Source: a virus. Taken from it: a stretch of DNA of 64,000 nucleotides. Below, piece after piece: positions 41,882-59,673 of the stretch. Each line of letters begins with the position of its first letter. Positions within the stretch are counted from its first letter, which is position 1. The translations under genes were made by a program, and so were the position numbers. Location: the IMG/VR virus record IMGVR_UViG_3300048837_000614, positions 21,920-85,919 of that record; one strand, given 5' to 3'. The notes under the pieces were generated by a model that made no database searches, was not told the DNA's origin, and worked only from the letters and a program-made list of their open reading frames with translations.

Positions 41882-42211
41882 TTATTTTTTGTGATTTCTC
41901 ACCCAAACACTACATTTATCTGGCATAAAAAATGTAAAATCCGAATAATACGATTTCCATTTTGGTTTTGTATTGATACCCCAACCTTGTTCTCCTTCGA
42001 TTAGATCAAATACGAAACCCTCTGTTAAAATTTCCGAAACTTTAGACACGTTATCATTTTTGTAATTGCCTATTTGTTCTTTTGGACAACTAATTAAGAT
42101 ACTTACTTCATCATTTGAAGCTTGGACTTTCAAATGGGATAATTCTTCCTTACCCCATCTGACTATCTTTTCTCTAACTATTTGTTCTACCTTTAGTCCT
42201 GCATAACTCAT
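41882..42211 (-). CDS. Hypothetical protein
   Basis: AGGAG RBS; packed operon. Confidence 0.6.
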   Translation of the reverse strand: MSYAGLKVEQIVREKIVRWGKEELSHLKVQASNDEVSILISCPKEQIGNYKNDNVSKVSEILTEGFVFDLIEGEQGWGINTKPKWKSYYSDFTFFMPDKCSVWVRNHKK

Positions 42212-42232
42212 ATTTGCTAACTTTTTTCTCCT

Positions 42233-42628
42233 TTACCAATATTTAAACTCTATGGTTTCATTTTCTGTTACTATTTTTGAAGCCATAAGAGCCTCTAATT
42301 TTGCGATTAGATTTGTCCAATTGGTTTCTAACCACCAATCATCAGCATCTTCTCTTCGTAATTCTTCACATCTTTTTAATAATTTGATAAGGTCATGGAT
42401 TTCAATACTTCCATCTCCTTCTGAATTTTCATTGAGATAGAGCGTTTCTAATTTAAAATCTCCTTCCCAAACTTCTTCTGGTATTTCATCTAAACTGACG
42501 TAATTTAAAGTTTCATCTAATAAGATTTCTTGGTATAGTCTTGTGTTTATCCAACCGTAATTGTTTACATATAAACTTTTAACTCCACCATATTCCTTTA
42601 ATATACTTAAATGTGTGTGCATTCCCAT
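42233..42628 (-). CDS. Hypothetical protein
   Basis: Packed operon. Confidence 0.6.
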   Translation of the reverse strand: MGMHTHLSILKEYGGVKSLYVNNYGWINTRLYQEILLDETLNYVSLDEIPEEVWEGDFKLETLYLNENSEGDGSIEIHDLIKLLKRCEELRREDADDWWLETNWTNLIAKLEALMASKIVTENETIEFKYW

Positions 42629-42630
42629 AG

Positions 42631-43221
42631 TTATAAATTGTCGAAGTCTGACTCCTCAAAGCCATATTTTTCGACCATCTCCTTTTGCCATTTTTTAAAT
42701 TCTTCATCATTGTTTCCGTAATAGAAAGAATCAATATAATCTTCTTCTTCGTTATCATAGACTTCGTAAACCCAAAAACCTTCGTTAATGTAATTTTGAA
42801 ATTTAGATCTAAATTCTTGTATATCCTCTTCTTTGTTAGCAAAAACAACATAGATAAAACCATTTCTATTATTTTCTACCCAATTACTACATTTTTTTGT
42901 TAAGGCATCATCGGTCATATTGACACTTACTCCGTCCCAACCGTTTTCACGAAACAGTGAGATAACACCAAAACAATTGTAATTTAGTTCTTTCATTTTG
43001 TTCTTGATGTCAGTAATATCGCTAAATTCAAAATCTTCAGCTTCCATTATTTTTCCCGAATAATGCGTTCCTGTGTTTTCGGTATTGAAGAATATTTCAT
43101 AATGTTCTCCCTTTACTAAATAACTTACTTGGCTTAATGCGTCTGAAAATGACGTATCATACATTTCTGATTTCTTCGCTTCGTATCTTGGAACTTCTAT
43201 AGTTCTTTTAAATGTTTTCAT
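42631..43221 (-). CDS. Hypothetical protein
   Basis: GAGGG RBS; packed operon. Confidence 0.65.
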   Translation of the reverse strand: MKTFKRTIEVPRYEAKKSEMYDTSFSDALSQVSYLVKGEHYEIFFNTENTGTHYSGKIMEAEDFEFSDITDIKNKMKELNYNCFGVISLFRENGWDGVSVNMTDDALTKKCSNWVENNRNGFIYVVFANKEEDIQEFRSKFQNYINEGFWVYEVYDNEEEDYIDSFYYGNNDEEFKKWQKEMVEKYGFEESDFDNL

Positions 43222-43546
43222 AATTTCCCTCTTCTAAGAATTTTGCAAATTCTTCTAACATTTCTTCTATGGCTTCAGCATCTTCTAAAAGACCTTTTAT
43301 CGTGTTTGGACAACCACCTTTTCCTCTGTGTGGTAACCACAATTCAACATGTTCTTCTATGTCAAAATCATCTACGTATTTTCTTACTTCTTTTTTTATT
43401 TCTTCTAAATTATTTTTACCTTTTACTTCAATAGCAAAACCAAAATCTTCTCCTGCTGGTGAATATTGATAGAATGAAATTTGATTTTTTGATTCAAATT
43501 CTACAGTCCAACCCAAATATTCTCCAATTTTTTTTATTGTTTTCAT
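43208..43546 (-). CDS. Hypothetical phage protein
   Basis: YSPAGEDF...LLEDAE pattern; ATGA coupling. Confidence 0.65.
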   Translation of the reverse strand: MKTIKKIGEYLGWTVEFESKNQISFYQYSPAGEDFGFAIEVKGKNNLEEIKKEVRKYVDDFDIEEHVELWLPHRGKGGCPNTIKGLLEDAEAIEEMLEEFAKFLEEGNYENI

Positions 43547-44349
43547 CGGTATTGTCCTGTTTGACTTGCATCATGTTTAAATGTTTCTGATGGGTTTAAA
43601 TCTCTTCTGAAATATCTAACGCTATCATGGAATCTTCCATCTTTCATTCTAACTAAGTAGTAATCTCCGTCAAGATCTCTAAAGATGTCTAAACCCCATA
43701 CTCTTTGATTTACACGATATGCTATGTCTACATTTGTTTGGTCGTAACCCCACATTGCAGAGTAAGCCTCGTCAGTTAATTTTAGTCCTGGAATTACAGG
43801 TAATTTATCCCAAATTGCTCTATAGTAAAGTGTGTCACCGTTACTTCTAAACTCGTCTTGTGGATAACCTAAACTCTTGGCTAAAATCGCCTGTCTAATG
43901 TACTTTAATTCTCCAAACCAATCAAACTTAATACAGTGTTCTACATTATCTAATAACTCTTTTGTGTATCCTTGGATAGCTTCTTCTACAGTTCCATATT
44001 GGTTTCTTCTATAATGATAAGATTTGTCCCAATTTTCTTTTGCATGATTTTTCAAGAACTCTTTGTAATCTTCTAATGAAATATATTCTGTTAGGTTTTT
44101 GCCATACTTGACATTTTTCTTGTCCTCTTTGATTAGAGGCTCTCCTTCTGGCACATCTAAATCTAATTTTGTTTTGCAGATAAACCCACCTACAAACTTA
44201 GAGTAATAACAACTTTTTTCTTTCAATGACACATTTAGTTTGATGTATTCTTCTTTTGTTAAATCTTTTTTGATCTTATAAACGTTTAATTTTTCAAGTG
44301 TTCTTGTGTCTTGTCCTTCTCTAAATTCTAAAACTTCATTTAAGTTCAT
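43543..44349 (-). CDS. Hypothetical protein (WGYDQTNVD motif)
   Basis: AGGAG RBS; 268-aa ORF. Confidence 0.7.
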   Translation of the reverse strand: MNLNEVLEFREGQDTRTLEKLNVYKIKKDLTKEEYIKLNVSLKEKSCYYSKFVGGFICKTKLDLDVPEGEPLIKEDKKNVKYGKNLTEYISLEDYKEFLKNHAKENWDKSYHYRRNQYGTVEEAIQGYTKELLDNVEHCIKFDWFGELKYIRQAILAKSLGYPQDEFRSNGDTLYYRAIWDKLPVIPGLKLTDEAYSAMWGYDQTNVDIAYRVNQRVWGLDIFRDLDGDYYLVRMKDGRFHDSVRYFRRDLNPSETFKHDASQTGQYR

Positions 44350-44489
44350 TTTTTTTCTCCTTTTTTTGGTATTCTATTATTTCGCCACATTTTCCACAAA
44401 ATCTTGGTGGTTCTTTTGGGTATTCTTTTGTACTTATGATGAAATTTCCACAAATTGAACATATTATATCTTTGTATTTTCTGTTTTGT

Positions 44490-44837
44490 TTATATTCTGG
44501 TTTCATCTTCTTTTTCTTTTAGTATTTCATCTAAGAAAACTATAGCTTTCATCCCACTAATTTTATCTTTTGCACCTATACTGAATTCTTTTTCTCCGTT
44601 TGGATCTCTATATGCACTTTCTTTTCCATAGTATTTATAGTCATACACCATAAAGATCGTTCCATCTTCTAACATAATAAAATATTCTACGCTTGTCTTT
44701 TCATTTCCTTTTCTAAACTTCCCTAATGCGTTTTTTAATTTATTATGAGTTGTTTTTATATTTCCTTGGTTACAAGACCAATCTAACTTGAATTCAAATT
44801 CTGTTTTTGTTATATTTATAAATCTTTGTCTATTCAT
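44490..44837 (-). CDS. Hypothetical protein
   Basis: ATGA coupling; VYDYK motif. Confidence 0.65.
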   Translation of the reverse strand: MNRQRFINITKTEFEFKLDWSCNQGNIKTTHNKLKNALGKFRKGNEKTSVEYFIMLEDGTIFMVYDYKYYGKESAYRDPNGEKEFSIGAKDKISGMKAIVFLDEILKEKEDETRI

Positions 44838-45094
44838 TTTTGTTCACCTAACCCTATATATTTTGCTGCTGTTTCTAAAGTTATTTCTTTTACTCTACCC
44901 TCCGGATACACCAAATAAAATTTATCTTCTTCCTTTGAGTAATCTAGTGTGAAAGTTCCAATACAAAAACTTTTATCTCCCTTATGATTCCTACTAGGCA
45001 TAAGATTTAAAACTCTATCTTTGAGTGTTGTTGTTTTTTGTTTCTCTTCTTTTTCAGTTTCTTCTCTTATTCTTTCCCATATTTTATTGCTCAT
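44834..45094 (-). CDS. Hypothetical protein
   Basis: AAGGAG RBS. Confidence 0.6.
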   Translation of the reverse strand: MSNKIWERIREETEKEEKQKTTTLKDRVLNLMPSRNHKGDKSFCIGTFTLDYSKEEDKFYLVYPEGRVKEITLETAAKYIGLGEQK

Positions 45095-45465
45095 TTTTTC
45101 TCCTTAATAAAGATATAGTTTGTTTCATCAATAGTTAAAAAATCTTCTACGATATACTTCTCTACTTCTTTTGTGAATACTGATAGTTTTATGAGTTTTA
45201 ATTCATCTAACTCTATGTAGTGATTCATCTTTAAGACAAATACCGTTTCTTTTTTTAACACTAATCTGACTTCTTGTGAGTCCCATAGATTATGCCCTTC
45301 TTCTGTTTCTAAAAACTTTACCAAACTAATTTCATCATTGATGATTTCTATTATTTCTTTTTTAATATTTTCTACTCCTGCATGATAACCCGTTTCGAAA
45401 TTATCCCCTAAAATCGTTCTTCCTTTTCTTTCTACTAAGTTTTTAATACTGTCAATTTTTCTCAT
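45091..45465 (-). CDS. Hypothetical protein
   Basis: AAGGAGAGG RBS directly after the GC-rich hairpin. Confidence 0.65.
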   Translation of the reverse strand: MRKIDSIKNLVERKGRTILGDNFETGYHAGVENIKKEIIEIINDEISLVKFLETEEGHNLWDSQEVRLVLKKETVFVLKMNHYIELDELKLIKLSVFTKEVEKYIVEDFLTIDETNYIFIKEKK

Positions 45466-45477
45466 TTTTCCTCTCCT

Positions 45478-45516
45478 TTATAGTGCGTGGCGACACGAGG
45501 AACGAGTGTTGCACGC
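45478..45516 (-). promoter_or_regulatory. GC-rich hairpin element, copy 1 (candidate phage RNAP promoter)
   Basis: Plus strand TTATAGT-GCGTG-G-CGACAC...GTGTTG-CACGC; covarying partner at 55218-55258. Confidence 0.5.
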
Positions 45517-45620
45517 TTACTTTACTTTTATTAAAATAAAAACACCTATTGAAACCATGATAACCATGATTACTATAAGCATTCCTAAATCTGATTCTTT
45601 TGGATAAACTTTTCTTCTTC

Positions 45621-46364
45621 TCATTTTATGCCTACAATTTCTTTCATTGAAAATATTTTTGTTTTCCATTCACAATATTTAATCAATGTAAGTTTATCTA
45701 CACTACTAACCTTATGTAATCTATGGTTAAGATATAACGCATGAGCTTTTCTTGACAACCTATATAAATTATCTTTATTAAAATTAGTATGATCGTCATC
45801 TAAAAAGATAATTACATCATCGATATCATCAAGCTTAACATTGTGATAATATTCATACAAATATCTGTTTTTTAATATATACTTATCACGTTTAGTTTGT
45901 GAATTTGATATTTTAATGTATGGTGTAACGCAACTACCCTCACGTATTTCATCGCCTATATTTTTGTGAGCAAAACCTCTTAATTTAAGCCAGCCTGTTT
46001 TCAGATTGCCTTTCGCTATATCCATTGCCTTATGTGCTTTCGGTAAGCATAATTGATACTTTGTGTTTAAATCTCTCAAAAAATTTAGATCAATATTAGT
46101 GTTGAAGCGTTGATTAAATGCGTTTAATATATCTTCTCTATCATCGTAATTATGTTTGTTATTCTTTAACCACTCAACCTGTTCTTTTCTTGGAACGAGT
46201 TTAAATCTTAATGATATTTTGTTTCTTTTACACACACATAATAAACTATTAAACGATATATTTTCGTTAAATTCTAAATTGAATAATTCTAATAATTCTT
46301 CTCTATTTGAACATTGTTCTTTGTGGTTTCTTAACCATTCAATTTTTATATCATTCCATCTCAT
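45621..46364 (-). CDS. HNH endonuclease-like protein with duplicated N-terminal helical repeat
   Basis: RYLYEYYH...IIFLDDDHTNFNKDNLYRLSR (HNH_3-like); the repeat EWL.N.K...RE.LL..FN..FN.NI occurs twice. Confidence 0.7.
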   Translation of the reverse strand: MRWNDIKIEWLRNHKEQCSNREELLELFNLEFNENISFNSLLCVCKRNKISLRFKLVPRKEQVEWLKNNKHNYDDREDILNAFNQRFNTNIDLNFLRDLNTKYQLCLPKAHKAMDIAKGNLKTGWLKLRGFAHKNIGDEIREGSCVTPYIKISNSQTKRDKYILKNRYLYEYYHNVKLDDIDDVIIFLDDDHTNFNKDNLYRLSRKAHALYLNHRLHKVSSVDKLTLIKYCEWKTKIFSMKEIVGIK

Positions 46365-46627
46365 TTTATCTTTTGCTCTTGCAATTTGATGTTTTCTTTC
46401 ATGATGTTATTGCGTTCATTTCTAATGTTATACATAGTTGTTCTAAGTTCTAAATCTTTTATTTTGTAATCAACTTCTTGCTGCTTAATGATAGATAAAA
46501 TGTGGCTGTTTTTTAATTGGCTAACCTTTAATATGTGAGGATTTCTTCTAATTTCCTCATTTGTTAAACTATTTAATTTTTCTATTTCACTAACGCTTGT
46601 TTCGTATACAACCTCTTTGTATTCCAT
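46361..46627 (-). CDS. Hypothetical protein coupled to the HNH gene
   Basis: AAGGAG RBS, ATGA overlap. Confidence 0.6.
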   Translation of the reverse strand: MEYKEVVYETSVSEIEKLNSLTNEEIRRNPHILKVSQLKNSHILSIIKQQEVDYKIKDLELRTTMYNIRNERNNIMKENIKLQEQKIK

Positions 46628-46639
46628 ATTATTCTCCTT

Positions 46640-46849
46640 TTATTCTTCGTTTGCTTTTCCGTTTTTTAACATTTCAATGTATTTATTTAGTGCTAATTCT
46701 ACGTTGTTTGTTTTAAAAATAATCTCTCTATAACCTGGTCCTCTTGTGTTTAAATCGGTATCGTAGTGGGCTGTGCAACTAACTAAATTGTCTTGTATTT
46801 GACAAGCCCACACCCTTAAATTATCAACTACTTTACTTATTGTTTTCAT
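46640..46849 (-). CDS. Hypothetical protein
   Basis: AGGT RBS. Confidence 0.55.
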   Translation of the reverse strand: MKTISKVVDNLRVWACQIQDNLVSCTAHYDTDLNTRGPGYREIIFKTNNVELALNKYIEMLKNGKANEE

Positions 46850-46868
46850 TTTTCTTTACCTACTTTTC

Positions 46869-48626
46869 TCATTTTATTTTTTGTATCGTTTTGATTACCC
46901 TTCTTAAGAACTCTTCTTTATCTTTAATTCTTATTTCAAACATTTGATTAAATTTTGTATTCCATAGGATTCCCACTTCGTAGCCACCGATAAACATATA
47001 AGTCGCTAACTGTAGAAAATGCTTATGTTCTAATTGCTCAACAAATTTTAACTCATAAGGCATGTTATTTTTAACCGTATCTATGAAACCTTTAATTCTC
47101 ATATCTCTATTGACCCTATAAAATACTTCGATTTGAGATGGTAGTTCTGGATCTAAATGCTCTTTTAATCTTTCTATGAGTTCCACTTCTTCATCTATAT
47201 CTATAAACTCTTCCATAGCTTGATTGTAGTATCTCATAAGATTTGTATCTACTGCAGTTAAACAGAGTACTTTTTTAACCTTTGTTTTAGGTTTCGTTTT
47301 CTTTATGTACTTAACTATTGGTGCATCTTCTTTGAATGAGTTTAATATTCTTTCATAATTCCAATCTTTAAAGAAAATAGCTTCTTGGTAGATGCCGATA
47401 ACAGGTGCTAATGTGATGTTGAAATCGTTTAACACTACCTTTATTTCTGATTTGTTAGAGGTCTCTAATTCCTTTACATCAAGCATTTCATACGTTCTTT
47501 GAATGTCGGTATCAAAACAAAAATCAAACATCTTAGATGGACTATAATCCTCGTCTAATTTTCTACTTAATAAGAATGCTTCGAAGTTTTTTTCTGTTAA
47601 TATTTGATTCTCTTGAATGAAAATGATTTCATCTTTACCTCTACTTGCAGCGACTAAGAATAAGTTTTTAATGATTTCTCTATTTGACTTCTCACTACGA
47701 TAAGCAAGTGCATCTGTTTCAAAACCAAATACTATCGCTAATTTGCGTTCTAAGCCTTTTGAACCGTCAAAGGTAGTTACTATCATGCTGTTGTCTAAAG
47801 GTTTGTTAGCGTTGTCTGTGTCGCTTATGGTGATGTATAAATTCTTCTTGTTGTACTTTTCTGGGTTTTCCTTTTCAATGTAGTTGATAAACTGATTTAG
47901 TCCTACATTATTTCTAAAAGGACTTAAGATTAAGATGTCCTTATTTTGATATTCAGCTATCTTATCGTATAAATATTCTTTGTTATATCTAATGATTTCT
48001 ACCTTTTGATTTGGGTTTACACCTTTGATTTTTTTGTTCCAAATATTACCTAACATCTTCGCATGATCTTCATTTAATCTAAAACAGTTTGTTAGGTCCA
48101 TTTGTTTGTAATCATTTCTTAATGAGAAGATGCAGTCCTCTAAAACGTTGATGGTTGTTGTATCATAAATCTTTTGTTTCATATCTCCTACGAATACAAT
48201 TTGCATCTCTTTTCTTTGATATAAATCTATTGTCTTTATTAATTTTGAAGCGTCATCATTTATATCTTGATATTCATCTACTAACATGACATCATACTGT
48301 GGCATATTGATCGTTCCATCTTGGACATTTTTAATGAAGTCTTTGATTCCATTTTGATGTGTGTATTGAATTCTATATGCAGTTAAATAACGATAAACAA
48401 ACCCATGATAGTTGTGTATTTCTACATTTCTACCACGGATTTGTTTCTTGGCATCCTCTTTCAAGAGTTTGTTATAGGTTAGATATAGTATCTTTTTGTT
48501 TTTTAATGTAATACAAATATCGTTTAAAGTAGTTGTTTTACCTGCACCTATACAAGCGTCTACGAACACGTTGTGTCCTTCTTCAACCGCTTTGATGATA
48601 GATTCCTGTTCCTCTGTTCGTTTCAC
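46869..48626 (-). CDS. UvrD-like SF1 helicase fused to a C-terminal PD-(D/E)xK nuclease
   Basis: GAGKTT, VDEYQD, VGDMKQKIY, SKGLE, VAASRGK; IKGFID...YELKF...QLATY. Confidence 0.85.
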   Translation of the reverse strand: MKRTEEQESIIKAVEEGHNVFVDACIGAGKTTTLNDICITLKNKKILYLTYNKLLKEDAKKQIRGRNVEIHNYHGFVYRYLTAYRIQYTHQNGIKDFIKNVQDGTINMPQYDVMLVDEYQDINDDASKLIKTIDLYQRKEMQIVFVGDMKQKIYDTTTINVLEDCIFSLRNDYKQMDLTNCFRLNEDHAKMLGNIWNKKIKGVNPNQKVEIIRYNKEYLYDKIAEYQNKDILILSPFRNNVGLNQFINYIEKENPEKYNKKNLYITISDTDNANKPLDNSMIVTTFDGSKGLERKLAIVFGFETDALAYRSEKSNREIIKNLFLVAASRGKDEIIFIQENQILTEKNFEAFLLSRKLDEDYSPSKMFDFCFDTDIQRTYEMLDVKELETSNKSEIKVVLNDFNITLAPVIGIYQEAIFFKDWNYERILNSFKEDAPIVKYIKKTKPKTKVKKVLCLTAVDTNLMRYYNQAMEEFIDIDEEVELIERLKEHLDPELPSQIEVFYRVNRDMRIKGFIDTVKNNMPYELKFVEQLEHKHFLQLATYMFIGGYEVGILWNTKFNQMFEIRIKDKEEFLRRVIKTIQKIK

Positions 48627-48894
48627 TTTTTATTCCTCTTTCTACAGTTTGTTTAAGTTTTTTAATATTTTTAAGTGCTTTAGCGTAATTTGTAATGCGG
48701 TGTTGAACGTACTGTATAGATGATTTTTTGAGTTGCTTTTTATAATAAATGTTGGTGTAGTTGTTAAAATCTTGAATAGTCACTTCGCTATTTCTTAATT
48801 TAAATCTTATGTGCAATACACAACCGCTATCATGATGTGATATTTGCTTATACCCCTCATTTATCAATGCTTCGATAAATTGTTGTTGTTTCAT
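48583..48894 (-). CDS. Hypothetical protein
   Basis: Start MKQQQF after GGGGTG. Confidence 0.55.
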   Translation of the reverse strand: MKQQQFIEALINEGYKQISHHDSGCVLHIRFKLRNSEVTIQDFNNYTNIYYKKQLKKSSIQYVQHRITNYAKALKNIKKLKQTVERGIKSETNRGTGIYHQSG

Positions 48895-49051
48895 TTTTTG
48901 CTCACCCCATATTTCATCAACCATTCATGCAATACTTTTGCCGTATCGCCTTTTCTCATGCGTCTTAAGATACTCTTATACTTGCGTTTATCAATGCCTA
49001 AATCTTTTGCTTGCTCACGCAATTCTTTTTCAGTCATAGTTTTGTTGAACA

Positions 49052-49324
49052 TTAGTTTACCTCTTCATACCAATTAACAGGTATGTTGTATGGCTTGACA
49101 TCTACCAACTCTAAATGACACGCCTTTAGTATCTTATTTTCGCCCATAAACTTGATTGTCGTTTCCTTTGCAACTTCTACATACGCCTTAAACTCACGAG
49201 TTAAATCGTTTACCATGTACCTCTTGTCATCTACATCAAGTACGAATGCGTGGAGTTGTTTGTTATAATAGTAGCCAATTTGCGTGAGTTTACGGAAATA
49301 TTCTTTTTTGATAAAGTAGGTCAT
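49052..49324 (-). CDS. Hypothetical protein
   Basis: GAGGTG RBS, ATGA coupling. Confidence 0.6.
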   Translation of the reverse strand: MTYFIKKEYFRKLTQIGYYYNKQLHAFVLDVDDKRYMVNDLTREFKAYVEVAKETTIKFMGENKILKACHLELVDVKPYNIPVNWYEEVN

Positions 49325-49458
49325 TTACTCACCTCATCATGAATGTTGCCGATGATTTCGAGTGTATATTTTCTCGCAAGGAAACTTAAATTTCTTGTAT
49401 CAACTTCATAATCTTCAACATCTTCAATTGGTTTACCTCTAAACTTAATTTCTCTCAT
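49321..49458 (-). CDS. 45-aa internally deleted YopX-family ORF (not in the ORF track)
   Basis: MREIKFRGKP...LEIIGNIHDEVSK keeps both YopX terminal signatures; GAGG RBS. Confidence 0.65.
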   Translation of the reverse strand: MREIKFRGKPIEDVEDYEVDTRNLSFLARKYTLEIIGNIHDEVSK

Positions 49459-49470
49459 TCCCTTTTCCTC

Positions 49471-50022
49471 TCATATATCTAATTTTTCCTGATGATGTTT
49501 TTTCATTTCTACCGTTGCTATGGTGTCATTCTTACTTCCGCCGTGTGCGACTAATAATATCTCTATAATTTCCATGTTGTTATTTTTACCAATTCCGTTA
49601 CTGTTCCAACCAAACGATATGCAAATACCACTTGGCTTTAATATGCGTGCTATCTCATATTTGAAGTTTAGCCAATATGTCGCCTGTGTATCACTCATCG
49701 TTACCGTTCTATCAAGTTCAGTGTAACACTCTTTAACTTGTCTCGGCGTGTATGGTGGGTCATATAGCACCATGTCCACACTACAATCACCAATCGTTTT
49801 TAAAAAGTCGTTTGCTTCCATGTTGTAGTCACATTGATATTGTGGGTCTAAATCGTTTGAGATGTATTTACAGTGTGATAGATAATCTTTGATAGAGTGT
49901 TCGTTGGCGAATGGGTCTATAATTGTCATGCCCTTTTTAGCATGTTTCAATATCAAATCACGAAATGCAACGATACGAAATGTTTTGCTATTTGGCATTT
50001 CCCATACTCTATTTATCTTCAT
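49471..50022 (-). CDS. DNA adenine methyltransferase
   Basis: IIDPFAN (SAM-binding), SNDLD, LYDPPY (catalytic), EIARILKPSG. Confidence 0.85.
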   Translation of the reverse strand: MKINRVWEMPNSKTFRIVAFRDLILKHAKKGMTIIDPFANEHSIKDYLSHCKYISNDLDPQYQCDYNMEANDFLKTIGDCSVDMVLYDPPYTPRQVKECYTELDRTVTMSDTQATYWLNFKYEIARILKPSGICISFGWNSNGIGKNNNMEIIEILLVAHGGSKNDTIATVEMKKHHQEKLDI

Positions 50023-50231
50023 GGTTATCGTGCCGAAATATATTTTTTTTCTTTTGTGCTAATATGGTTTTTTCTTTTGCGTTAATATATGCCATATAAC
50101 CTATGACAAGTAAAATAATTATAAACGCTAATATTCTCATTCCCTTTTCCTCTCTTTCATCACTAACTTCACAATACCCCACATCAGAAGTGGGCTTAAT
50201 ACGATAAGCAATATGCCTACGATGATTAGCC

Positions 50232-50858
50232 TTACTTCACCCATACGCTCATCATGTTTTGTGGAGGGCGTTTTAATTTTGGGTATAAATTACAATCTTT
50301 AAAATGTTGTTCATGCAATAACCAATATTCACAAGAAACGTCATTCTTGAAGTTATACATATCCCCCAACTTCATCACCTCATCCAATATCTCAACCTTC
50401 GAGATGTGGAGGGCGTAGAGGTCTTTGCCGTTGCCGTAGTCCATAAATTGTTGATGTGATAATTGACAGTTTTTTAAGAATGTAGTCATGTTTCCTAATT
50501 GCATATTGCCGTATGTGTAATCGAAGTTATTACGTGACATTTTAATATACCCATCTATCACCACTTTGACGGGGATTGTGCCGTTGATGAGATTGCTCCC
50601 CATAACCTTTTGATAATCGCTATCGTAATATGTAACATTGTCTTTATCGTCACATAATACATATTCTTTATTCCCAAAATTATAATACAAGTACGGCTTT
50701 CCTTTCGTGCAATATAAATACGCCTCGACAGTTTCGCCACGATCTAATTTATCTAACACGTCTTTATTTACTTTTTTCACCACGAGATATTTAGCAAGTT
50801 CGTTTAAGATATTTACCATGCGTGATGAGGATTGGGAGATTAAGAGGGATTTAGTCAT
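50232..50858 (-). CDS. Hypothetical phage protein (ASCH-like family possible)
   Basis: YLYCTK, LYALHIS and LKRPPQ motifs. Confidence 0.55.
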   Translation of the reverse strand: MTKSLLISQSSSRMVNILNELAKYLVVKKVNKDVLDKLDRGETVEAYLYCTKGKPYLYYNFGNKEYVLCDDKDNVTYYDSDYQKVMGSNLINGTIPVKVVIDGYIKMSRNNFDYTYGNMQLGNMTTFLKNCQLSHQQFMDYGNGKDLYALHISKVEILDEVMKLGDMYNFKNDVSCEYWLLHEQHFKDCNLYPKLKRPPQNMMSVWVK

Positions 50859-51184
50859 ATCTTTTTTCCTCCATGTTTATATGGTCTTGACTTGTTAAAT
50901 TCATGCTTTTCTAATATGGCTTTTTCTAAGTCAATGCCATAACGTTCGCACATATCCATTACTCTGATAACAACATCAGCAAGTTCACTTGGAACTCCAC
51001 AAGGCTTGCCGTTTGGTTCGTAGTGATTTTCATTCAAAGGTAATCCGTTTCGGTAATCCTCAAGTGCTTCACTTACTTCACTATGAACAAGTGCCAATAA
51101 TTCACCAAATGGTCTTTCTTCATCCCACCATCCATGAGCCTTTGCGTTATCATGGACATCTTTTTGTAACAATTTTATGTCCAT
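50855..51184 (-). CDS. MazG-like NTP pyrophosphohydrolase
   Basis: HSEVSEALE, SELADVVIR, KHEFNKSR. Confidence 0.85.
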   Translation of the reverse strand: MDIKLLQKDVHDNAKAHGWWDEERPFGELLALVHSEVSEALEDYRNGLPLNENHYEPNGKPCGVPSELADVVIRVMDMCERYGIDLEKAILEKHEFNKSRPYKHGGKKI

Positions 51185-51426
51185 TATTTAACCTCTTCGT
51201 AAGTCTTTTCAAATATGTCTGGCTTGCATGGATAGAACTCACCATTAACACCTTTGATGACATAATCGTCAATACTTACTTTCATTTCACCTTCAAGCGT
51301 GTGGATAGCAACAATTCCGTTACTGTATAAAAGTAAATCACGTCCAACAAAAGATTTCAATTCAACTTGATTGTTTCCATTAAATTGAATGGCTTCAATC
51401 ACTACTGGTTTCTTACGATATTTCAT
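51184..51426 (-). CDS. Conserved phage protein (PGDYG-like)
   Basis: [15 protein letters not shown]...TLEG...[16 protein letters not shown]; start after AAGGAG. Confidence 0.75.
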
Positions 51427-51433
51427 CTTTCTT

Positions 51434-51814
51434 CTACTCCTTCCCTTCCATTTCTTCCAAATATTGCGTGAGGATACGGGAGAGTTCATGACTAACCCAT
51501 GACACATCAGAAACGCCTTTATCACCGTTATATAACGTGTATGTGGTGAACTCTCTATTTTCAACATCAATAAGTATTACTTCATAATTTTTTGCATACT
51601 GTTTGTATCTTCCACTCTCAACATCACTTTTAACAACGGTATCGTGTATCTTTTCTTCATACCCCATCTCAATCAACTTTTCGTGTGCCGTGCGGTAGGG
51701 TTTGATGTCTTTTAATGGAAACATCTTTCCGTTTACCTTGACACCACTTTCATATACCTTTTCAACTATTCCTGTAAATTGTGGCGTTTCCACCTTATCG
51801 CCTATCTTATACAT
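51434..51814 (-). CDS. Hypothetical protein
   Basis: MYKIGDKVE start; packed operon. Confidence 0.6.
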
Positions 51815-52046
51815 ATCTACTTACCGCCCATAAAAGCAATGTGTAAAATACTGAAACAGCAATTATTACTAAAACAGTTAACATATCTTTATTATGATTT
51901 TTCATTTTATTAGTGTATAATTTTAATTCACTAATATCAACAAGTCTACTTCCTCGTTCATTTATGATTTGCACTAAATCTTCATCAATACCTTTGATAA
52001 CATACATCTCGTTATCAAGTTCCACCTTATCGCCTATCTTATACAT
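51807..52046 (-). CDS. Small protein with a C-terminal transmembrane helix
   Basis: MYKIGDKVE start; hydrophobic C-terminus. Confidence 0.6.
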   Translation of the reverse strand: MYKIGDKVELDNEMYVIKGIDEDLVQIINERGSRLVDISELKLYTNKMKNHNKDMLTVLVIIAVSVFYTLLLWAVSRYV

Positions 52047-52233
52047 CTTTCTTACCTACTTTCTCAATCTTTGTTCCATCATCTAATGTGATTGATACGA
52101 ATGATTGTGTTTTTTTGTCAGCGATCTTGTTAGCGTGTCTTTGCACACTATCTTCTAAATTGACAAGTAGTTTCTTATAATCTTTTTCGGTTAGTAACAC
52201 TTCAACTATCACTACCATTTTAACTTTTTTCAT
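52039..52233 (-). CDS. Hypothetical protein
   Basis: ATGA coupling. Confidence 0.55.
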   Translation of the reverse strand: MKKVKMVVIVEVLLTEKDYKKLLVNLEDSVQRHANKIADKKTQSFVSITLDDGTKIEKVGKKDV

Positions 52234-52517
52234 TCTTCCTTACCTACTTTCTCTAATCGTTCCTCTAATTCCCAAAACTCTGTAATGTCTTTGACGGATG
52301 GTAGTATTGTTTTCAATTTATTTCGTGTTTCAAAATATCTTTTTACATCACGCTTTAATTCTTCAAGTTCGGTGAGGGATTGTCTTAATTCGTAAAATCT
52401 TTCATCTTTAAAAGAAAACACACGTTCATGTTTGTATGAAGTTCTTCCGTCCATATCAATAAAATTAAAGCCGAACTCGGTATCTTGTATCTCTTTCAAT
52501 ATTTCTTTAGGTGTCAT
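52230..52517 (-). CDS. Hypothetical protein
   Basis: MTPKE...LTELEELKR shared with the neighbouring ORF. Confidence 0.6.
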   Translation of the reverse strand: MTPKEILKEIQDTEFGFNFIDMDGRTSYKHERVFSFKDERFYELRQSLTELEELKRDVKRYFETRNKLKTILPSVKDITEFWELEERLEKVGKEE

Positions 52518-52882
52518 TTCTTCTCAACCCCCTCGTAAAATCGTCCGATGAGTGTGATGAGGTGAGGGGGTAACTTATCTCCGCCAAAGTCTATTACACC
52601 ATCTTTAAAACACGCATACCAAGACAATTCACTTTCAAATGTCATATCTCGCTTTGAATATTCAACTTCATAATGATAATACTCACTCAACGCCTCGCAC
52701 ACTTCATCGGCAGTTGGGTAACGCTTGAGTTCTTCAAGTTCGGTGAGGGCTTGTTCAACAATATCAATTTCAGTATCATATTGAAGATATTCAAAATGTT
52801 TTTCTACACTTACACCAGTTTTTAAATGTAAATGTTCTGCGATTGCTTGCTTAATGCCTTTCAACGCTTCTTTAGGTGTCAT
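52514..52882 (-). CDS. Hypothetical protein
   Basis: GGAGG RBS; MTPKE...LTELEELKR. Confidence 0.6.
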   Translation of the reverse strand: MTPKEALKGIKQAIAEHLHLKTGVSVEKHFEYLQYDTEIDIVEQALTELEELKRYPTADEVCEALSEYYHYEVEYSKRDMTFESELSWYACFKDGVIDFGGDKLPPHLITLIGRFYEGVEKK

Positions 52883-53265
52883 ATCAGTTCCTCCAATTCT
52901 TTTTCTAAATCATCAACTTGTTCATCCATAGTTTTCTTTATACACAATTCTTTTTCTAATGTACTTATTTCTAATGCAATTTTCCATATTTGTGCTTCTG
53001 CAATCATTTTTTCTTTAGGTGTCAATGTACCATGTTTTGTCGTCCACCCCCATTCAAGCATAAATCTATATAACATGCTTTTCTTAATCAACCCCAATAA
53101 CTCCTCAACCTTTTTAGCACGTTTTTCTTTCTTTTCTTGTTCGGTGATGTAAATATGTAAGTCATCAATTTGTGATGGTGTAATGGCATCAGTTGGAACT
53201 AACTCATTTAGTAAGTTTCTTGCCTCTTCATGCGTAATTACTTTCACTTCTTCTTCATAGTTCAT
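52879..53265 (-). CDS. Hypothetical protein
   Basis: GGGGT RBS. Confidence 0.6.
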   Translation of the reverse strand: MNYEEEVKVITHEEARNLLNELVPTDAITPSQIDDLHIYITEQEKKEKRAKKVEELLGLIKKSMLYRFMLEWGWTTKHGTLTPKEKMIAEAQIWKIALEISTLEKELCIKKTMDEQVDDLEKELEELI

Positions 53266-53269
53266 ACTA

Positions 53270-53494
53270 TTATACCCCTATAATTTCACGATACTTAAAA
53301 CCCTTTGTAGGTTGATAAGTAACTTCATAACTCTTTCTAGTCTTATGCGAATAGACTCTGACAATTGGATTTGTAATCTTTCCAGCAATGAAATCATTTT
53401 TTAAATAAGACCACTTTGTGTAGAACGATGCTGTCTTATCTTGGTGGTGTGCAACTACTCTTTCATCATTTTTAATTAGATCTTCTCGTTTCAT
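53270..53494 (-). CDS. Hypothetical protein
   Basis: AAGGAG RBS; first gene after the non-coding locus. Confidence 0.65.
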   Translation of the reverse strand: MKREDLIKNDERVVAHHQDKTASFYTKWSYLKNDFIAGKITNPIVRVYSHKTRKSYEVTYQPTKGFKYREIIGV

Positions 53495-53525
53495 TTTTAT
53501 TCTCCTTTATTTTATATTATATATT

Positions 53526-53558
53526 AAAAAAAAATCACACTTTATTCAAATGTGATTT
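53526..53558 (-). terminator. Rho-independent terminator ending the non-coding locus
   Basis: Minus strand AAATCACA-TTTGAATAAAG-TGTGATTT followed by a T-run. Confidence 0.7.
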
Positions 53559-54004
53559 CTAATAAGTCAAGTTGGTGCCTACGTTCGATAAAGTCTACTT
53601 GATAGGCACGTCTTGTTCGGTCACCTATGATGCCTTCACGGGGGGGATGTAATAGCATCACTAAATGGTGGTATTGAGTGGAATAGGTAATCACCACTCG
53701 ATGGGAAGATAATTTTCCTTTGATCCCTTTAAACTTTTGTACTAACCTCTTTGATTAAAGTTTAATCTCAAAGAGTTTTCTTCGGCTTCCTATGTTTATC
53801 GATTACTTGGACCTACTATGTGTGGACACGATGCGACACACTCCTGGGCAATCTCCTGGTTAATAACTTAGATCACATACACAGAATTTTATCGTGATTA
53901 CCGAATACTTATGATATGGTTGTGGCCGTTGAACATATCTACTTCCAAAGAAGCTAGTGCTGTTCCATTTACCTACAGCTATTCTATAGGCACCAGAGAT
54001 TTAG

Positions 54005-54039
54005 AAAAAAGCCCAAGAGATAAGAGAATCTTAGGCTTT
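54005..54039 (-). terminator. Terminator-like hairpin inside the non-coding locus
   Basis: Minus strand AAAGCCTAAGA...TCTTGGGC followed by T6. Confidence 0.6.
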
Positions 54040-54790
54040 ATTAAGGATATAGCTTACGATTTTGAGAACGGAAACCGCAAGCTAATGATAGGCTGTGCTC
54101 TTTTGAATTGACACATTGAACTTAGTCACCCTTTATGTTTTGATCGAAGGGAAAAGCACCTATGCATTGAATCTGATAAAAAGAGATTCTCGGAAAGGCA
54201 AGAATAGGCGGTTAAAGCTGAACGATAACTTTAACAAACCTTTAGTCCTATCGTTTTTTAATTTGTTTCGGACGTTATTAGAATTCCTATTCTTTTAAGT
54301 AATTTACTACCTTTCCGACAATGTCTTTTTATTGATGATAAAAGCAAGCTGTTAGTTGACCTGAAACTCATTTAACTTCTTAAGGCTGCAACAGAGAAGC
54401 ACTCGCTAATTCATCACATTAAGTCAAGAGAATACTTCGGTCTGCCTAACGACTTATTATTCTAACCTTGAGCTGGCACTTCAAGGGAAGCCGGTTTCAT
54501 ATTCTCATTGACTTAATCTGATGAATCAAAATACTTATCACATCATCAACGTTTGAGGAGAACTCTGTTCCTCGTAAGATGTTTACTTCTATCTTAACAG
54601 AATAGTGTGCTGACATTTACACCAGTCTTACCTTTGATGATCTGATAAATATTCTTATACGACAAATCTGGCACGCCAAAAATGTCTTAGAAGATATAAG
54701 GTATATATATTTATATATATATACCGTTATCTCTTATTAAAAATAAAAAAATACTTACAGTATTTTATTTATTTTTCTAGTATACAACCT

Positions 54791-54831
54791 CTTTTGAAGG
54801 CTTCTTTTGCTGTCGCAAGAAGCCTCAAAAG
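54791..54831. other. Strong hairpin upstream of the ncRNA locus
   Basis: CTTTTGA-AGGCTTCTT...AAGAAGCC-TCAAAAG. Confidence 0.5.
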
Positions 54832-54921
54832 TTAGTCGTTTTCAAAAGATTTTACGGTTCAATTTGTTTTTTACGCACATGACGTATACAGTTTTTTAAT
54901 ATTCAATTTTTAGTGTGAAAC

Positions 54922-54949
54922 AAAAAAGAAAAGGGTGTTACGCCTTTTC
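54922..54949 (-). terminator. Terminator overlapping the stop of the 77-aa ORF
   Basis: Minus strand GAAAAGGCG-TAA-CACCCTTTTC-TTTTTT. Confidence 0.6.
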
Positions 54950-55171
54950 AACTTCAAGGATGGTTGTGTATGTTCCACGCGTTTCAATGAGGATCACTGA
55001 ACCTGGTTTGACGGATGCTGACATCTCATCTTTCGCAACGATAACACTCTCATTGTTAGCATTTACTAACGTAAGGTATTCGTTGTCATTGATTGAACGT
55101 GGGACAACTCTCTTCACTGTGAATGTGAAAACTTTTCCCATTGCGGGATTTGCACTGACTGCTTGTGCCAT
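54938..55171 (-). CDS. Small beta-rich protein, possible OB/S1-like nucleic-acid-binding fold
   Basis: AAGGAG RBS, own leader hairpin and terminator; FTFTVKRV, YLTLV, SVIV, VKPGSVILIE strand pattern. Confidence 0.6.
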   Translation of the reverse strand: MAQAVSANPAMGKVFTFTVKRVVPRSINDNEYLTLVNANNESVIVAKDEMSASVKPGSVILIETRGTYTTILEVEKA

Positions 55172-55217
55172 GATATATCTCCTTCTAGTGATGATACATG
55201 ATTTTTTCTTTCATCAC

Positions 55218-55258
55218 TTACAATGCACGGCGACACGCGAACTTTGCGTGGTGCGTGC
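55218..55258 (-). promoter_or_regulatory. GC-rich hairpin element, copy 2 (candidate phage RNAP promoter)
   Basis: Plus strand TTACAAT-GCACG-G-CGACACGCGA...TTGCGTGGTG-CGTGC. Confidence 0.5.
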
Positions 55259-55288
55259 GGGCGGGACGTGGACTTCATTTTTTTTGTA

Positions 55289-55354
55289 AACGCTCTCACA
55301 ATGGGGGACGCGTGGTGGGGGAGGGCTAGCACACATAATATATAACGCTCTCAC
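55289..55354. repeat. 11-bp direct repeat AACGCTCTCAC (55289-55299, 55344-55354)
   Basis: Exact repeat in an intergenic region. Confidence 0.7.
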
Positions 55355-55471
55355 CTCATAGAAACAAAAACAAGCAACACAAAGGGCGTGAACATTCACT
55401 ACACACCAAGAAAGAAGAAAAAAGAATGAAATGAAAAAGAAAAAGGGGGTCGGGTATGGGTTGTTGGGGTT

Positions 55472-55497
55472 AAAGGGGAGCCAGAAAAGAACTCCCC
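55472..55497 (-). terminator. Hairpin terminator after the RNAP gene
   Basis: Minus strand GGGGAGTT-CTTTTCT-GGCTCCCC-TTT. Confidence 0.5.
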
Positions 55498-55520
55498 GAA
55501 TAAACTCCTAACAGATTTTA

Positions 55521-58500
55521 TTACTTAATGATATAGAACTTCGATACTGCGTCAAACTCTTTCATATCTTCTTCAGTGAATGAAAGTATTTGCTTAAATG
55601 TGTTACCGTTTGGATTGATAACATCGATGAGATTATTTACAGCACTCTTTGGATCTGATGTATTGAACCAACCAGCATTTGAATAGTCGAACTTGAGAGC
55701 TGTGTAGTTCATCTTTTCTTCAGCAAAACGAGATAGATCCTTTTTAGCATATAAGAACGCTTGATAGTCATAAGGCATCTTTTCAGCGTTGAGCTTAGTG
55801 TCAGTGCTTCCTTTGAACTTATAACCTTGGATCGTTTCACCGTTGATGTTGAATAGATGTTTCTCGATGATTTGAGATTTGATACCAAATTCTCTTGTGA
55901 TAGCGAATGTTCTGTATGTTGGATAGAATCCCCATTCGATGAATGCAGCAACTGCTTCAGACATACGATACACGAGTAGAACTGTCTTAACAACTTCTTG
56001 TAGGTTATCGGACCATTTTTGGATGTCGATGGTAGGTTGAACAAGTTTGTAGTTCATTTCGTCTGCCATGAGTCTAAGTCTATCTTTGGTTGCTTGATCT
56101 GTGATGTTAAATCTATTCATGAAGTCTTCGATAAAGAATGTTGCTTTCATCGTAATCGTTTTGGCTACACCAATAAGTTGTTTAGAGATTCTTGTTGTCA
56201 TTAAGTTTGATGAAGCTTTGATGAGTACTTCGCGTTTTGTTTGAACAGTCTTTGAGAGTGTGAGTAGTTCTTGAGCGTATGACTTGTTCTTCTTAACTTC
56301 ACCTATCCATAGAATGAGAGAGTCTAAGTCTGTGTATGGATATTTGTTAGGTAATGTGTGTAGATCAGTTGTATCAAAGATGTTTTGAGGTTTACCTAAT
56401 AAGATGTCTCTTGCGTTGAACTCGAAGCCGTATGATGTGATGTTTCTTTGTTCGTAGCCAAATAGAGTGTGTAGTTCTTTCTTGAATCTGTATGGGAAGA
56501 ATAAGAATATAACTTGGTCTCCATCAAAGTCTCCACCTTGACGTTGCCAAATGATTGGATTAACTTCAGAGTAACCGTGCTTAGCGTATTCGCTTGCTTT
56601 GTGTACGGTAACCATTGTGAAGATCGTATTAGCATCATCGACTGATGGATTACGTAATTGTAGAGCAGGTGGCAATAGTACTGGAACATTGTTTTTATAA
56701 GCACCAAAAGCTTTATCAATGTCATAGTTTCTATCAATACGCTTGATATTAACTAAGAAGGCAGTAAATTCTAACTCTGTGAGATAGATTCTAGCTTGAC
56801 CTGGTTCTAAGCTGACGTTGGCTGTAACTGTTGATGTGAACCCTGTAACTTCTTTTTGGAAGCGTTGTGTAATCTTTCCATACTTGCCATAGAGTTTACC
56901 TTCGGCTGTTGATTCTAACTTGTTAAGATCCTTGTTGATTTTATCTTCGTTACCTAATAGATGTTCTACAATTCGATAAGCACCCATGAGTCTTGCACGT
57001 GAGAACCACTCTAAACCTAACTTGTAAGATTTGAATTCTGTTTTACTATCTTGTTCAGTAGAATCATCGATGTCAGTATCTTCTAAATCATCGTTCTTGT
57101 ATGATGAGTCGATATCTCTAACTAGGAATGATTGCATGAGGACCACAGGATGTTTGCCTAATGATTCTTCGCCATTGAATATTTCTACTAAGTCCATGAG
57201 TTCTTCTGACTGTAGAGGTTTGTTATAGAAGTCTCTAACTTCTTGTGTTGTATTACCATTGAAAAATTTCTTGGCATTGTATAAGCCTTCGAAGAGAACA
57301 CCAAAGTTCTTTCTACTTGCTACATTTATCAATGATGCAACGTTGATTGGATATTTAATACCATTAACTACACAGTATAGATCATCCATTGTTACACGTG
57401 AAACACCTTTATCAAATCCTTGGAAAGCAATCTTAACACCTTCAAATAGATTTAACTTGTCAGCATAATGTTTGTGAATGAGTCTTTGCCCATCGTAAGT
57501 TGATAAGCCATTAGCGTCTACATAATCTATCATTGCATATAACATGTTGTAAGATGGAATGTACTTAACTAACTTAGAAGTGATTGTCAAAGGTTTGTCT
57601 GGTTTAACTGTTTCGAATGCGTGACCGATGATATAAGCTGAACCTGCATTTCTAAATGATTGATGATTGTGCATGTTGAATGGATTGATTTCGATCAATG
57701 ATTTCTTCTCTTCAAGGTATGCGACTGCAAAGTCTGCTTTGTTGTTCATATAACCTGGGTCGAACAGATCTAATCTACTATTATTAAGTGGGAAGTTACG
57801 ATGTTTGTCGTATCCTTTACCACCTAAGTTGTTAAGAATTTCAGCACCGTTAAACTTACCTGGATCAAGATATTCTTTGAAGTAGAACTTGTGATGTTCA
57901 ACGATAGTCTCAAATGGTGATGATTGTGATTCTACATTACCAATGATAATGAATGGTGCAAAGTAATAGATATTAGCCATGAGTCTTTCTTTTACTTCTT
58001 CGTATTCTCTACCAAGCATATGTACTTCAGTTAATATTTGTTCATGAGTAGGCATAATCTTACGCTTAGCGAACATGAGTCCGTTCAATGCTGCTTGAAG
58101 TGAACGTCTAAGGATCTCTTTGTTATCTTGTGATATCTTGTAAGCTTTAGTGAATGTTAATGTACCTTCAATGATTGAACGAACAAGTCCACGTAACGCA
58201 TTAGTTGATTTGCCATCTGCATAGTCCTCATAGATTTTATTCATGATAAATTTGTTATGACCTAATGTGTAAACACCTTTAATCATTGTAGGAACATAGA
58301 CGATGAATTCAGCATCTCCACGTTGACCCTTGAGTGTAATCTTAATAGCTTGTAATACATTGCCATAAGTGTTGGTAAACTTTCTACCTAACGATACACT
58401 GATACCTGCTTTGCTATCTACTAATCCATAAATAATTTGTGATAAGCTCTTTTGGTTCTTTGCGAACTCTTCAAGTTTCTTGTTGACAAATGGGAATGGT

Positions 58501-58961: not shown

Positions 58962-58980
58962 TTTATTTCTCCTTTTTCTT

Positions 58981-59439: not shown

Positions 59440-59662
59440 ATTTGTTTATGCCTCCATCCTTTCACCAATACTCGATCATGTTGTGGTCCAATAAGACTCA
59501 TATAACATGGGGGTGGTTTCAAAATTGACCCCCCGGCTTTTTACCCCTATATATATAAATATATATTAGCCCACCCCCCCTACTCTAAAATCTATACAAT
59601 GTAAACAAAGTAAAAAAAAGAAACAATAAAATCTCCCTCTCTACTACCCTTCACTTCCTCTC

Positions 59663-59673
59663 TGTGCTATAAT
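59663..59673 (+). promoter_or_regulatory. Extended -10 promoter for the packaging operon
   Basis: TGTG-C-TATAAT, followed by GAGGTG RBS and GTG at 59693. Confidence 0.65.

Follow-up and report, generated by a model that had tools for sequence, protein, structure and literature searches.

In a 64,000-nucleotide (nt) stretch of viral DNA, hereafter the window, two related GC-rich hairpins stand upstream of leftward genes. The window comprises bases 21920-85919 of the 85,919-base virus record IMGVR_UViG_3300048837_000614 and has a GC content of ~31%. The hairpins, which we call site 1 and site 2, are structured, paralogous and strand-specific signals that head two gene blocks. They might function as promoter-type initiation signals for one of the phage's own two-barrel RNA polymerases, more likely the non-virion enzyme of 1146 amino acids (aa), a reading that we favour tentatively and to which we give somewhat less than an even chance. 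Exactly two copies are present in the record, both on the template strand of the genes downstream of them.

Two paralogous hairpins and the strand that folds better

Both sites share the sequence TTAYART-GCRYG-G-CGACACG (45478-45516 and 55218-55258), as an earlier note on this DNA had proposed. We found two matches to the 20-nt motif TTAYARTGCRYGGCGACACG in the window at three mismatches or fewer, both on the plus strand, compared with 0.01 expected, and none of 100 shuffles reached two. With the looser consensus TTAYNRTGCRYGGCGACACG at up to five mismatches, the whole record gave both sites and one additional five-mismatch match, which we took as chance. Site 1 was recovered with 23.1 bits (E 0.006-0.008) by a covariance model that drew on just site 2 and its orthologue in a related locus, L003. 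Site 1 was the only other match at E ≤ 0.01 when the window, the whole record and the loci L004, L038 and L039 were searched. Among the 56-nt segments of the genome, site 2 ranks third in stability, and site 1 (-8.7 kcal/mol) falls just under the 40 most stable ones. Compared with shuffled sequences, the plus-strand DNA folds have modest z-scores of -2.37 (site 1), -1.21 (site 2) and -2.51 (L003).

Each hairpin is built from an outer stem and an inner stem separated by a bulged G (Table 1). The outer stem joins GCGTG (45485-45489) to CACGC (45512-45516) at site 1 and GCACG (55225-55229) to CGTGC (55254-55258) at site 2. The two compensatory pairs that the earlier note saw in this change are real and occupy columns 14/52 and 15/51 of the alignment. 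At site 1, the inner stem pairs CGACAC (45491-45496) with GTGTTG (45506-45511) through five Watson-Crick pairs and one G.T pair, and at site 2 it pairs 55231-55239 with 55245-55253 through six Watson-Crick and two G.T pairs with one A/G mismatch. The predicted folds also bear out the bulged G at 45490 and 55230, followed by C-G and G.T pairs. Counting site 1, site 2 and the L003 copy in this order, 11, 14 and 16 positions are paired, all three hairpins are bulged, and the loops have 9, 5 and 5 nt.

In all three copies, both as DNA and as RNA, folding is better on the plus strand, the one that serves the leftward genes as template. Its advantage over the minus strand is 2.6-3.6 kcal/mol as DNA and 3.2-5.1 kcal/mol as RNA, where the plus strand folds with -16.2, -19.7 and -28.1 kcal/mol and the mRNA strand with -11.5, -16.5 and -23.0 kcal/mol. 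The difference arises because one G.T pair is found in every copy, together with a G.T pair closing the loop in both copies that have that pair, and the mRNA strand has C/A oppositions instead. Over the three copies, there are five G.T pairs on the plus strand versus no G.U pair on the mRNA strand. Within these limits, the earlier note's argument from wobble pairs that work on the plus strand, the template of the downstream genes, is correct. Provided that the slipped outer stem of L003 is accepted, every pair that forms on the mRNA strand also forms on the plus strand; without the slip, two positions of L003 would speak for the mRNA strand. Because site 2 and the L003 copy are orthologous, the strand preference represents two or three independent events at most, and we regard it as a hint.

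Conservation in related sequences

The covariation set consisted of three sequences, namely site 1, site 2 and the L003 copy, the last two being orthologues. A metagenome scan gave two loci that reach the region below the polymerase gene, L003 with the hairpin and L004 without it, and a genome scan gave two loci that end before the region downstream of the polymerase gene. The L003 polymerase is 62% identical to that of the window, and its locus has kept the invariant arm, the loop GAAC, the tail and the inner stem, in which the A/G mismatch of site 2 becomes A-T. The outer stem of L003 is poor in register, and a perfect outer stem of six base pairs (bp) forms when it is re-registered about three bases further out, so that the hairpin measures 38 nt compared with 32-34 nt at the two sites. 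The 129 nt ahead of the start of the 77-aa open reading frame (ORF) below site 2 are 87% identical between the window and L003, compared with 71-74% in the neighbouring coding DNA and in the part of the spacer further upstream.

All three copies have an identical 5' arm, GGCGACACG, and the outer-stem pairs 14/52 and 15/51 change on both sides. When the pairs were counted over the three copies, 36 of 39 cells were paired, against 70% or fewer with the partners slid. The alignment is consistent with a shared structure, without amounting to statistical proof.

Further relatives were sought in several collections. In IMG/VR, neither the 1146-aa protein, nor its 11-sequence profile, nor the 77-aa protein found a relative. 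A tail-plus-arm pattern picked out 33 stretches from IMG/VR, none of which had the hairpin or the family's fold. An arm-gap-arm pattern picked out at least 116, of which 76 have a GC of 0.56 or more; inspection covered the 40 with the lowest GC, and none of these had the outer stem or the tail. Megablast with 44000-56000 found no relative at the DNA level among 50,697 GenBank phage records, and tblastn found no relative of the 1146-aa protein among GenBank phages. In the four sequencing runs, contigs of X1/X2 and X3 span site 2 at ~90% identity; for site 1, no covering piece was present among the 32 rows listed, beyond which there are 778 more pieces.

Candidate polymerases and competing explanations

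As the earlier note had assumed, the phage very probably encodes two two-barrel RNA polymerases. The Rpb1 domain 2 match in a giant protein of 4949 aa has an E value of 3.4e-5, just below the curated cut-off. The 1146-aa protein has 10 homologues besides itself in the protein collection, and a GGDFDGD block is invariant in all 11 sequences. Its AlphaFold model, of moderate confidence (pLDDT 64), gave 12 Foldseek matches at E ≤ 0.001, all of them RNA polymerase chains with TM scores of 0.10-0.16. They include the largest subunits of plant Pol IV, Pol II and bacterial polymerases and the phage gp64 RNA polymerase chain 8f72_B (E 7.7e-4); QDE-1 followed at E 2e-3. Neither polymerase matched any solved structure in sequence searches. 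A six-frame search of the record for PF00940, the T7-type polymerase family, gave no match, and the control genomes gave none either.

From the two elements, their uniqueness, fold and position and the homology of the polymerases, we infer a transcription start at the hairpins, folding of the template strand and the enzyme that reads it. The plus-strand template would carry the bulged hairpin, with the invariant 5' arm and GAAC in the loop, and the 3' arm would need only to stay complementary. A conserved tail, TTA-NNN-TGC, would adjoin the 5' side of the hairpin. The polymerase might bind the hairpin and start RNA in or beside the tail, ~22 nt from the loop centre. In this model, transcription of the 77-aa gene, a 1.4-kb non-coding stretch and small early-type genes would proceed from site 2, and that of the replication module from site 1. 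Given a start at the tail, the AT-rich hairpin at 55187-55218 would be a 5'-proximal stem-loop of the transcript. The fuller proposal, in which a single-chain two-barrel polymerase reads long bulged template-strand hairpins together with a short single-stranded start box and two such signals switch on the early and replication blocks, is more tentative still.

Several features point to promoters. Each hairpin precedes leftward genes and has its tail on the side facing them, a geometry that fits a template-strand promoter. The 77-aa gene needs a new start because a terminator-like hairpin and a C/T-rich tract after the polymerase gene precede site 2. An invariant arm and tail, combined with another arm and an outer stem that vary while the pairing is kept, form a pattern as in the hairpin promoters of phage N4 (PMC4496689). 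Between the two enzymes, the 1146-aa polymerase is preferred because its own gene has no motif upstream and because the GC-rich motif of the Thermus phage P23-45 has been assigned to the non-virion enzyme.

Other observations weigh against promoters. The covariation is not significant, as 226 of 500 shuffles reached the observed value with three sequences, and the strand argument draws on one conserved G.T pair plus the loop-closing G.T. The hairpin is absent from L004, in which the polymerase is 43% identical and the gene order is the same, and the covariance model found no match in L004, L038 or L039. No such hairpin lies upstream of the 1146-aa polymerase gene itself. Extruding a bulged hairpin of 32-34 nt (38 nt in L003) with a loop of 5-9 nt from duplex DNA would probably be far costlier than extruding those of N4, and a start in the tail of site 1 would leave a leader of only ~12-15 nt. 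A sigma-70-like site (TTGACG-16-TATCAT, 10/12, minus strand 55555-55528) falls within the final codons of the polymerase ORF, ~300 nt ahead of site 2, so that the hairpin could sit in a long host-made leader. The sequencing runs listed for this stretch include no RNA run, and an element of the RNA leader would explain the position and conservation nearly as well. The suggestion of the earlier note that the hairpins are recognition sites for a phage RNA polymerase thus stands as far as the polymerases, the template-strand geometry and the place of site 2 after a terminator are concerned, and is weakened by the covariation in three sequences, the single conserved G.T pair and the hairpin-less L004. 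The expected conservation fared likewise: the hairpin is kept in L003 with its leader and site 1 was recovered from the model of site 2 and L003, whereas L004 lacks the hairpin and the model found nothing in the other relatives.

The chief rival explanation sees the hairpins as RNA elements of the leftward mRNA leaders, which would serve in protein binding, antitermination, processing, 5'-end stability or translation. We consider it rather unlikely, though a serious contender. Both sites are located in plausible 5' untranslated regions, site 1 being 5 nt before a ribosome-binding site and site 2 being followed by the second hairpin and a ribosome-binding site, and the mRNA strand still forms the same hairpin with the RNA energies given above. 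The C/A opposition and the bulged C on this strand would create an asymmetric internal loop, which is a common protein-binding feature. Terminators lie below site 2 (54949-54928 and ~53557-53524), where antitermination would be useful, and the sigma-70-like site 300 nt upstream of site 2 could supply the leader. According to RNAalifold, the conserved GCCRUG might pair with the region around the start codon of the 77-aa ORF; however, this pairing is absent from site 1. The mRNA strand is also the weaker folder in all three copies, with no G.U pair against five G.T pairs, and this weak strand argument is the one point on which the RNA explanation falls short in accounting for the sites. A translational operator is disfavoured by the unequal distances to the start codon, ~12 nt at site 1 compared with ~46 nt at site 2, and the stems of 11-16 bp are short for RNase III processing. 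Neither hairpin is followed by a U-run as an intrinsic terminator would be, and no Rfam family matched.

Three further explanations are improbable to different degrees. The hairpins might be functionless duplicated quasi-palindromes left as a scar of recombination or of a mobile gene, with the compensation produced by template-switch correction. The presence of just two copies, the mobile-type HNH endonuclease gene 105 nt upstream of site 1, the non-significant covariation and the lack of the element in L004 would all suit such a scar. We nevertheless consider it improbable: the hairpin is kept in L003 at 62% polymerase identity with a leader 87% identical compared with 71-73% in coding DNA, the two copies agree in orientation and in their position relative to the gene start, relatives of the HNH gene in the sequencing runs stop matching at 45663, before site 1, placing the hairpin outside the mobile unit, and the record has no Y1 transposase (control genomes were positive). 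A slightly smaller chance goes to single-strand DNA replication initiation signals on the plus strand, used by the phage primase or a primer-making RNA polymerase, with site 2 near an origin-like region. The better plus-strand DNA fold, the primase and helicases encoded by the phage, and the origin-like surroundings of site 2, with two copies of AACGCTCTCAC and a (TA)n near-palindrome at 54702-54725, agree with this idea. The fall of the cumulative GC skew ends at ~54 kb, and the skew of the polymerase gene is the reverse of that of its co-oriented neighbours, but the skew here mostly follows gene orientation, which weakens the skew argument. The two copies are 9.7 kb apart on one strand, and site 1 has no origin-like surroundings. 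A leftward primer on the plus strand would have the same geometry as leftward transcription, so that this idea overlaps with that of promoters. Very improbable, finally, is that the hairpins belong to rightward antisense RNAs from the plus strand, for example as terminators. The G.U pairs do work in plus-strand RNA, which gives the most stable folds of all, and a T-rich tract follows site 1 on that strand; site 2 and L003, however, are followed by G-rich sequence with no T-run, no conserved plus-strand promoter was seen to the left, and neither site appeared in the terminator scan.

Several known classes of elements were rejected or are unlikely. A scan of 42000-61000 for intrinsic terminators found two terminator-like sites, neither of them one of the hairpins, and the mRNA strand following the hairpins is A-rich or mixed. 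Rfam 15 had no match at the gathering score in the window and none at E ≤ 1 at site 1; near site 2, the matches were at chance level, with E 0.35 (the mir-44 microRNA family, across site 2) and 0.78. Ends of the IS200/IS605 type were rejected since PF01797, the Y1/HUH transposase, is absent from all six frames (6 of 14 control genomes were positive) and the 9.7 kb between the sites consists of ordinary phage genes. An array of GNA-loop mini-hairpins was also rejected: GC-rich stems of at least 4 bp number 8 on the plus strand and 3 on the minus strand in 85.9 kb, and they share no common sequence or placement pattern. Integron attC-like sites are unlikely, the hairpins being shorter than attC sites; no integrase search was made.

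The promoter reading can be compared with several known systems. In phage N4, the early promoters P1-P3 of the virion RNA polymerase have a 5-7-bp stem and a 3-nt loop, with a conserved region from -17 to +1 centred at -11. The enzyme is a T7-like single-subunit polymerase that needs gyrase and the host single-strand DNA-binding protein, and some promoter bases are conserved whereas others are free while paired (PMC4496689). The hairpins described here resemble this arrangement in placing a template-strand hairpin upstream of a candidate start, in the presence of a phage-encoded sigma-independent polymerase, and in their few copies, two here compared with three in N4. They also combine conserved bases with free paired ones, as judged from three sequences for which the shuffle control is not significant. 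They differ in having 11-16 paired positions plus a bulge, loops of 5-9 nt and a tail ~22 nt from the loop centre, and their candidate readers belong to the unrelated two-barrel class. The parallel drawn in the earlier note holds for a hairpin with fixed and free-but-paired bases, and stem length, loop size and polymerase class reduce it to an analogy: the hairpins would work like N4 promoters and are not members of the N4 type.

Closer by polymerase class is phage P23-45, which has a virion polymerase, gp96, and a non-virion one, gp64, with AT-rich and GC-rich promoter motifs, the GC-rich motif upstream of early/middle genes being proposed for the non-virion enzyme (PMC10770324). Like P23-45, the present phage very probably has a giant protein with a two-barrel polymerase and a separate non-virion polymerase of ~1100 aa, the 1146-aa protein, whose fold matches 8f72_B. 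The GC-rich motif of P23-45 belongs to mapped starts of early and middle genes, and here a GC-rich motif stands upstream of two gene blocks. In P23-45, 14 + 7 starts were mapped compared with two candidate sites here, the available text on its motifs mentions no hairpin, and the polymerases of the present phage have no sequence-level similarity to any solved structure.

The virion polymerase gp66 of the crAss-like phage phi14:2 transcribes single-stranded or denatured DNA well and duplex DNA poorly (bioRxiv 10.1101/2020.03.07.982082). This preference makes a single-strand promoter plausible, and a folded template-strand signal conceivable, for the two-barrel fold class. According to the same account, no common motif precedes the early transcripts of phi14:2, and transcription covers long intergenic regions at a very early stage, as it might cover the 1.4-kb non-coding stretch below site 2. 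Unlike phi14:2, the present phage has a probable second polymerase and strong ribosome-binding sites, and its polymerases are not close to gp66 by sequence. YonO of the Bacillus prophage SPbeta is another single-chain two-barrel polymerase, with one mapped start for a whole operon and a promoter sequence stated to be undetermined (PMC5467207). The single mapped start implies that such enzymes can work from very few promoters. YonO differs in being prophage-encoded and ~100 kDa, no hairpin is described for it, and its link to the 1146-aa protein is one of fold class only.

We found no description of hairpin promoters for two-barrel phage polymerases in the library searched. The non-virion polymerase of phage AR9 reportedly reads its promoter on the template strand, through a short deoxyuridine-containing motif. 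It shares the two-barrel type with the enzymes considered here and is said to be multisubunit, and it is not known to involve a hairpin. Two-copy signals at operon heads are known from lambdoid phages as the nut/put antitermination signals, and the ssi signals of plasmids and small phages are hairpins on single-stranded DNA read by a primase or polymerase. Unlike these, the present hairpins have no sequence or Rfam match, both copies are on one strand, and folding is weaker on the mRNA strand.

Few promoters have been defined for single-chain two-barrel phage RNA polymerases. If the hairpins are promoters, they would show how a sigma-less polymerase of cellular type locates its start by DNA shape. 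Hairpin-promoter recognition, known to date only for the unrelated N4 enzyme, would extend to the cellular-type fold and to an architecture other than that of N4, and a phage lineage with no cultured or GenBank relative would control two gene blocks by just two promoters. If they are RNA leader elements instead, they would be an ordinary kind of phage regulatory hairpin. The system is very small, with two candidate sites and two candidate enzymes, and makes clear mutational predictions for the invariant arm, the bulged G, the conserved G.T pair and the free outer stem.

Surroundings of the two sites and layout of the genome

Table 1. Positions in the window of the two hairpins, the candidate polymerases and the features next to them
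Feature	Position	Strand	Description
Site 1 tail, TTATAGT	45478-45484	+	Single-stranded, conserved; reads ...ACTATAA on the mRNA strand, then directly the ribosome-binding site
Site 1 hairpin	45485-45516	+	5-bp outer stem, bulged G 45490, 6-bp inner stem with one G.T, 9-nt loop
Site 2 tail, TTACAAT	55218-55224	+	Conserved
Site 2 hairpin	55225-55258	+	5-bp outer stem, bulged G 55230, 9-position inner stem, 5-nt loop
4949-aa giant protein	10851-25700	+	Residues 2077-2139 weakly match Rpb1 domain 2; the other candidate reader (virion type)
1146-aa single-chain two-barrel RNA polymerase homologue	55521-58961	-	Non-virion type; candidate hairpin reader
124-aa ORF	45091-45465	-	Headed by site 1; opens a block with sliding clamp, helicases, small PolA and primase
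HNH endonuclease gene	45621-46364	-	Adjoins site 1 upstream; relatives in other contexts in sequencing runs
Terminator-like hairpin, GGGGAG / CTCCCC then TTT	55465-55487	-	Directly after the 1146-aa ORF; kept in L003, with other letters in L004
AT-rich second hairpin, AGTGATGA / TCATCACT	55187-55218	-	Between site 2 and the ribosome-binding site of the 77-aa ORF; stem kept in L003
77-aa ORF	54938-55171	-	Headed by site 2; strong ribosome-binding site; conserved in L003 and L004
Intrinsic-terminator-like hairpin and T-run	54928-54949	-	Directly after the 77-aa ORF

Genes in the window run rightward from 1 to 25700, including the 4949-aa ORF, leftward from ~59440 down to 26000, and rightward again from 59700, where terminase and portal are encoded. 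The 33-kb leftward block is tightly packed. Its few real non-coding gaps are the two sites, a 1.4-kb stretch at 53495-54937 and short terminator-bearing spacers, so that each hairpin occupies one of them.

Site 1 is separated by 105 nt from the HNH endonuclease gene above it and by 5 nt from the ribosome-binding site that serves the 124-aa ORF below it; a T-rich tract follows the site on the plus strand. Contigs carrying relatives of the HNH gene have a much higher depth than the rest in manure and landfill runs, and their similarity ends at 45663, which would be expected of a mobile gene. On the minus strand at 45520-45570, a hydrophobic mini-ORF of 16-17 codons (...MVIMVSIGVFILIKVK) has its stop codon abutting the foot of the site 1 hairpin. 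We also considered a small ORF ending at the conserved TAA of the tail and rejected it, as there is no start codon at either site and the frames differ between the window and L003.

Site 2 is located 263 nt below the stop codon of the 1146-aa polymerase. The hairpin at 55465-55487 is followed by a C/T-rich, G-poor tract with 10 G in 85 nt of the mRNA strand. Sigma-70-like hexamer pairs show no enrichment in 42000-61000 (66 compared with 78.9 +/- 10.2 expected), and none is listed in the conserved block 55172-55300. The 77-aa protein had no Pfam or PHROG match and no informative Atlas match. Below its gene, the 1.4-kb stretch has no credible ORF and ends in a hairpin and T-run at ~53557-53524. 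It contains the most stable 56-nt hairpin of the genome (54785-54840, minus strand, -14.7 kcal/mol), which is kept in L003, and Rfam at E ≤ 1 gave only chance-level matches in it.

Upstream of site 2, the direct repeat AACGCTCTCAC occurs twice on the plus strand, at 55289-55299 and 55344-55354, 55 nt apart, and L003 retains the proximal copy together with its A-run. The genome has just two (TA)n near-palindromes, at 54702-54725, in the non-coding stretch below site 2, and at 59548-59570, upstream of the operon of the 152-aa and 1146-aa proteins, where G-runs flank it. Both might serve as promoters, origins or sites of unwinding.

The ends of the record repeat each other, record positions 1-4192 corresponding to 82526-85919 (window 60607-64000) with 3138 nt at 100% and 251 nt at 95.6% identity and ~0.8 kb in single copy only. 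The genome unit is therefore ~81.7 kb: the record, though classed as linear and 75% complete, is a wrap-around assembly, and the genome is probably complete.

In the structural block, a 1293-aa protein at 3092-6973 contains a staphylococcal nuclease domain (Pfam SNase, residues 133-225; PHROG endonuclease). Among the leftward small ORFs, a perfect 27-nt direct repeat joins 51788-51814 and 52020-52046, and a 34-nt direct repeat at 91% identity joins 52350-52383 and 52721-52754, which suggests tandem paralogous small genes in this run.

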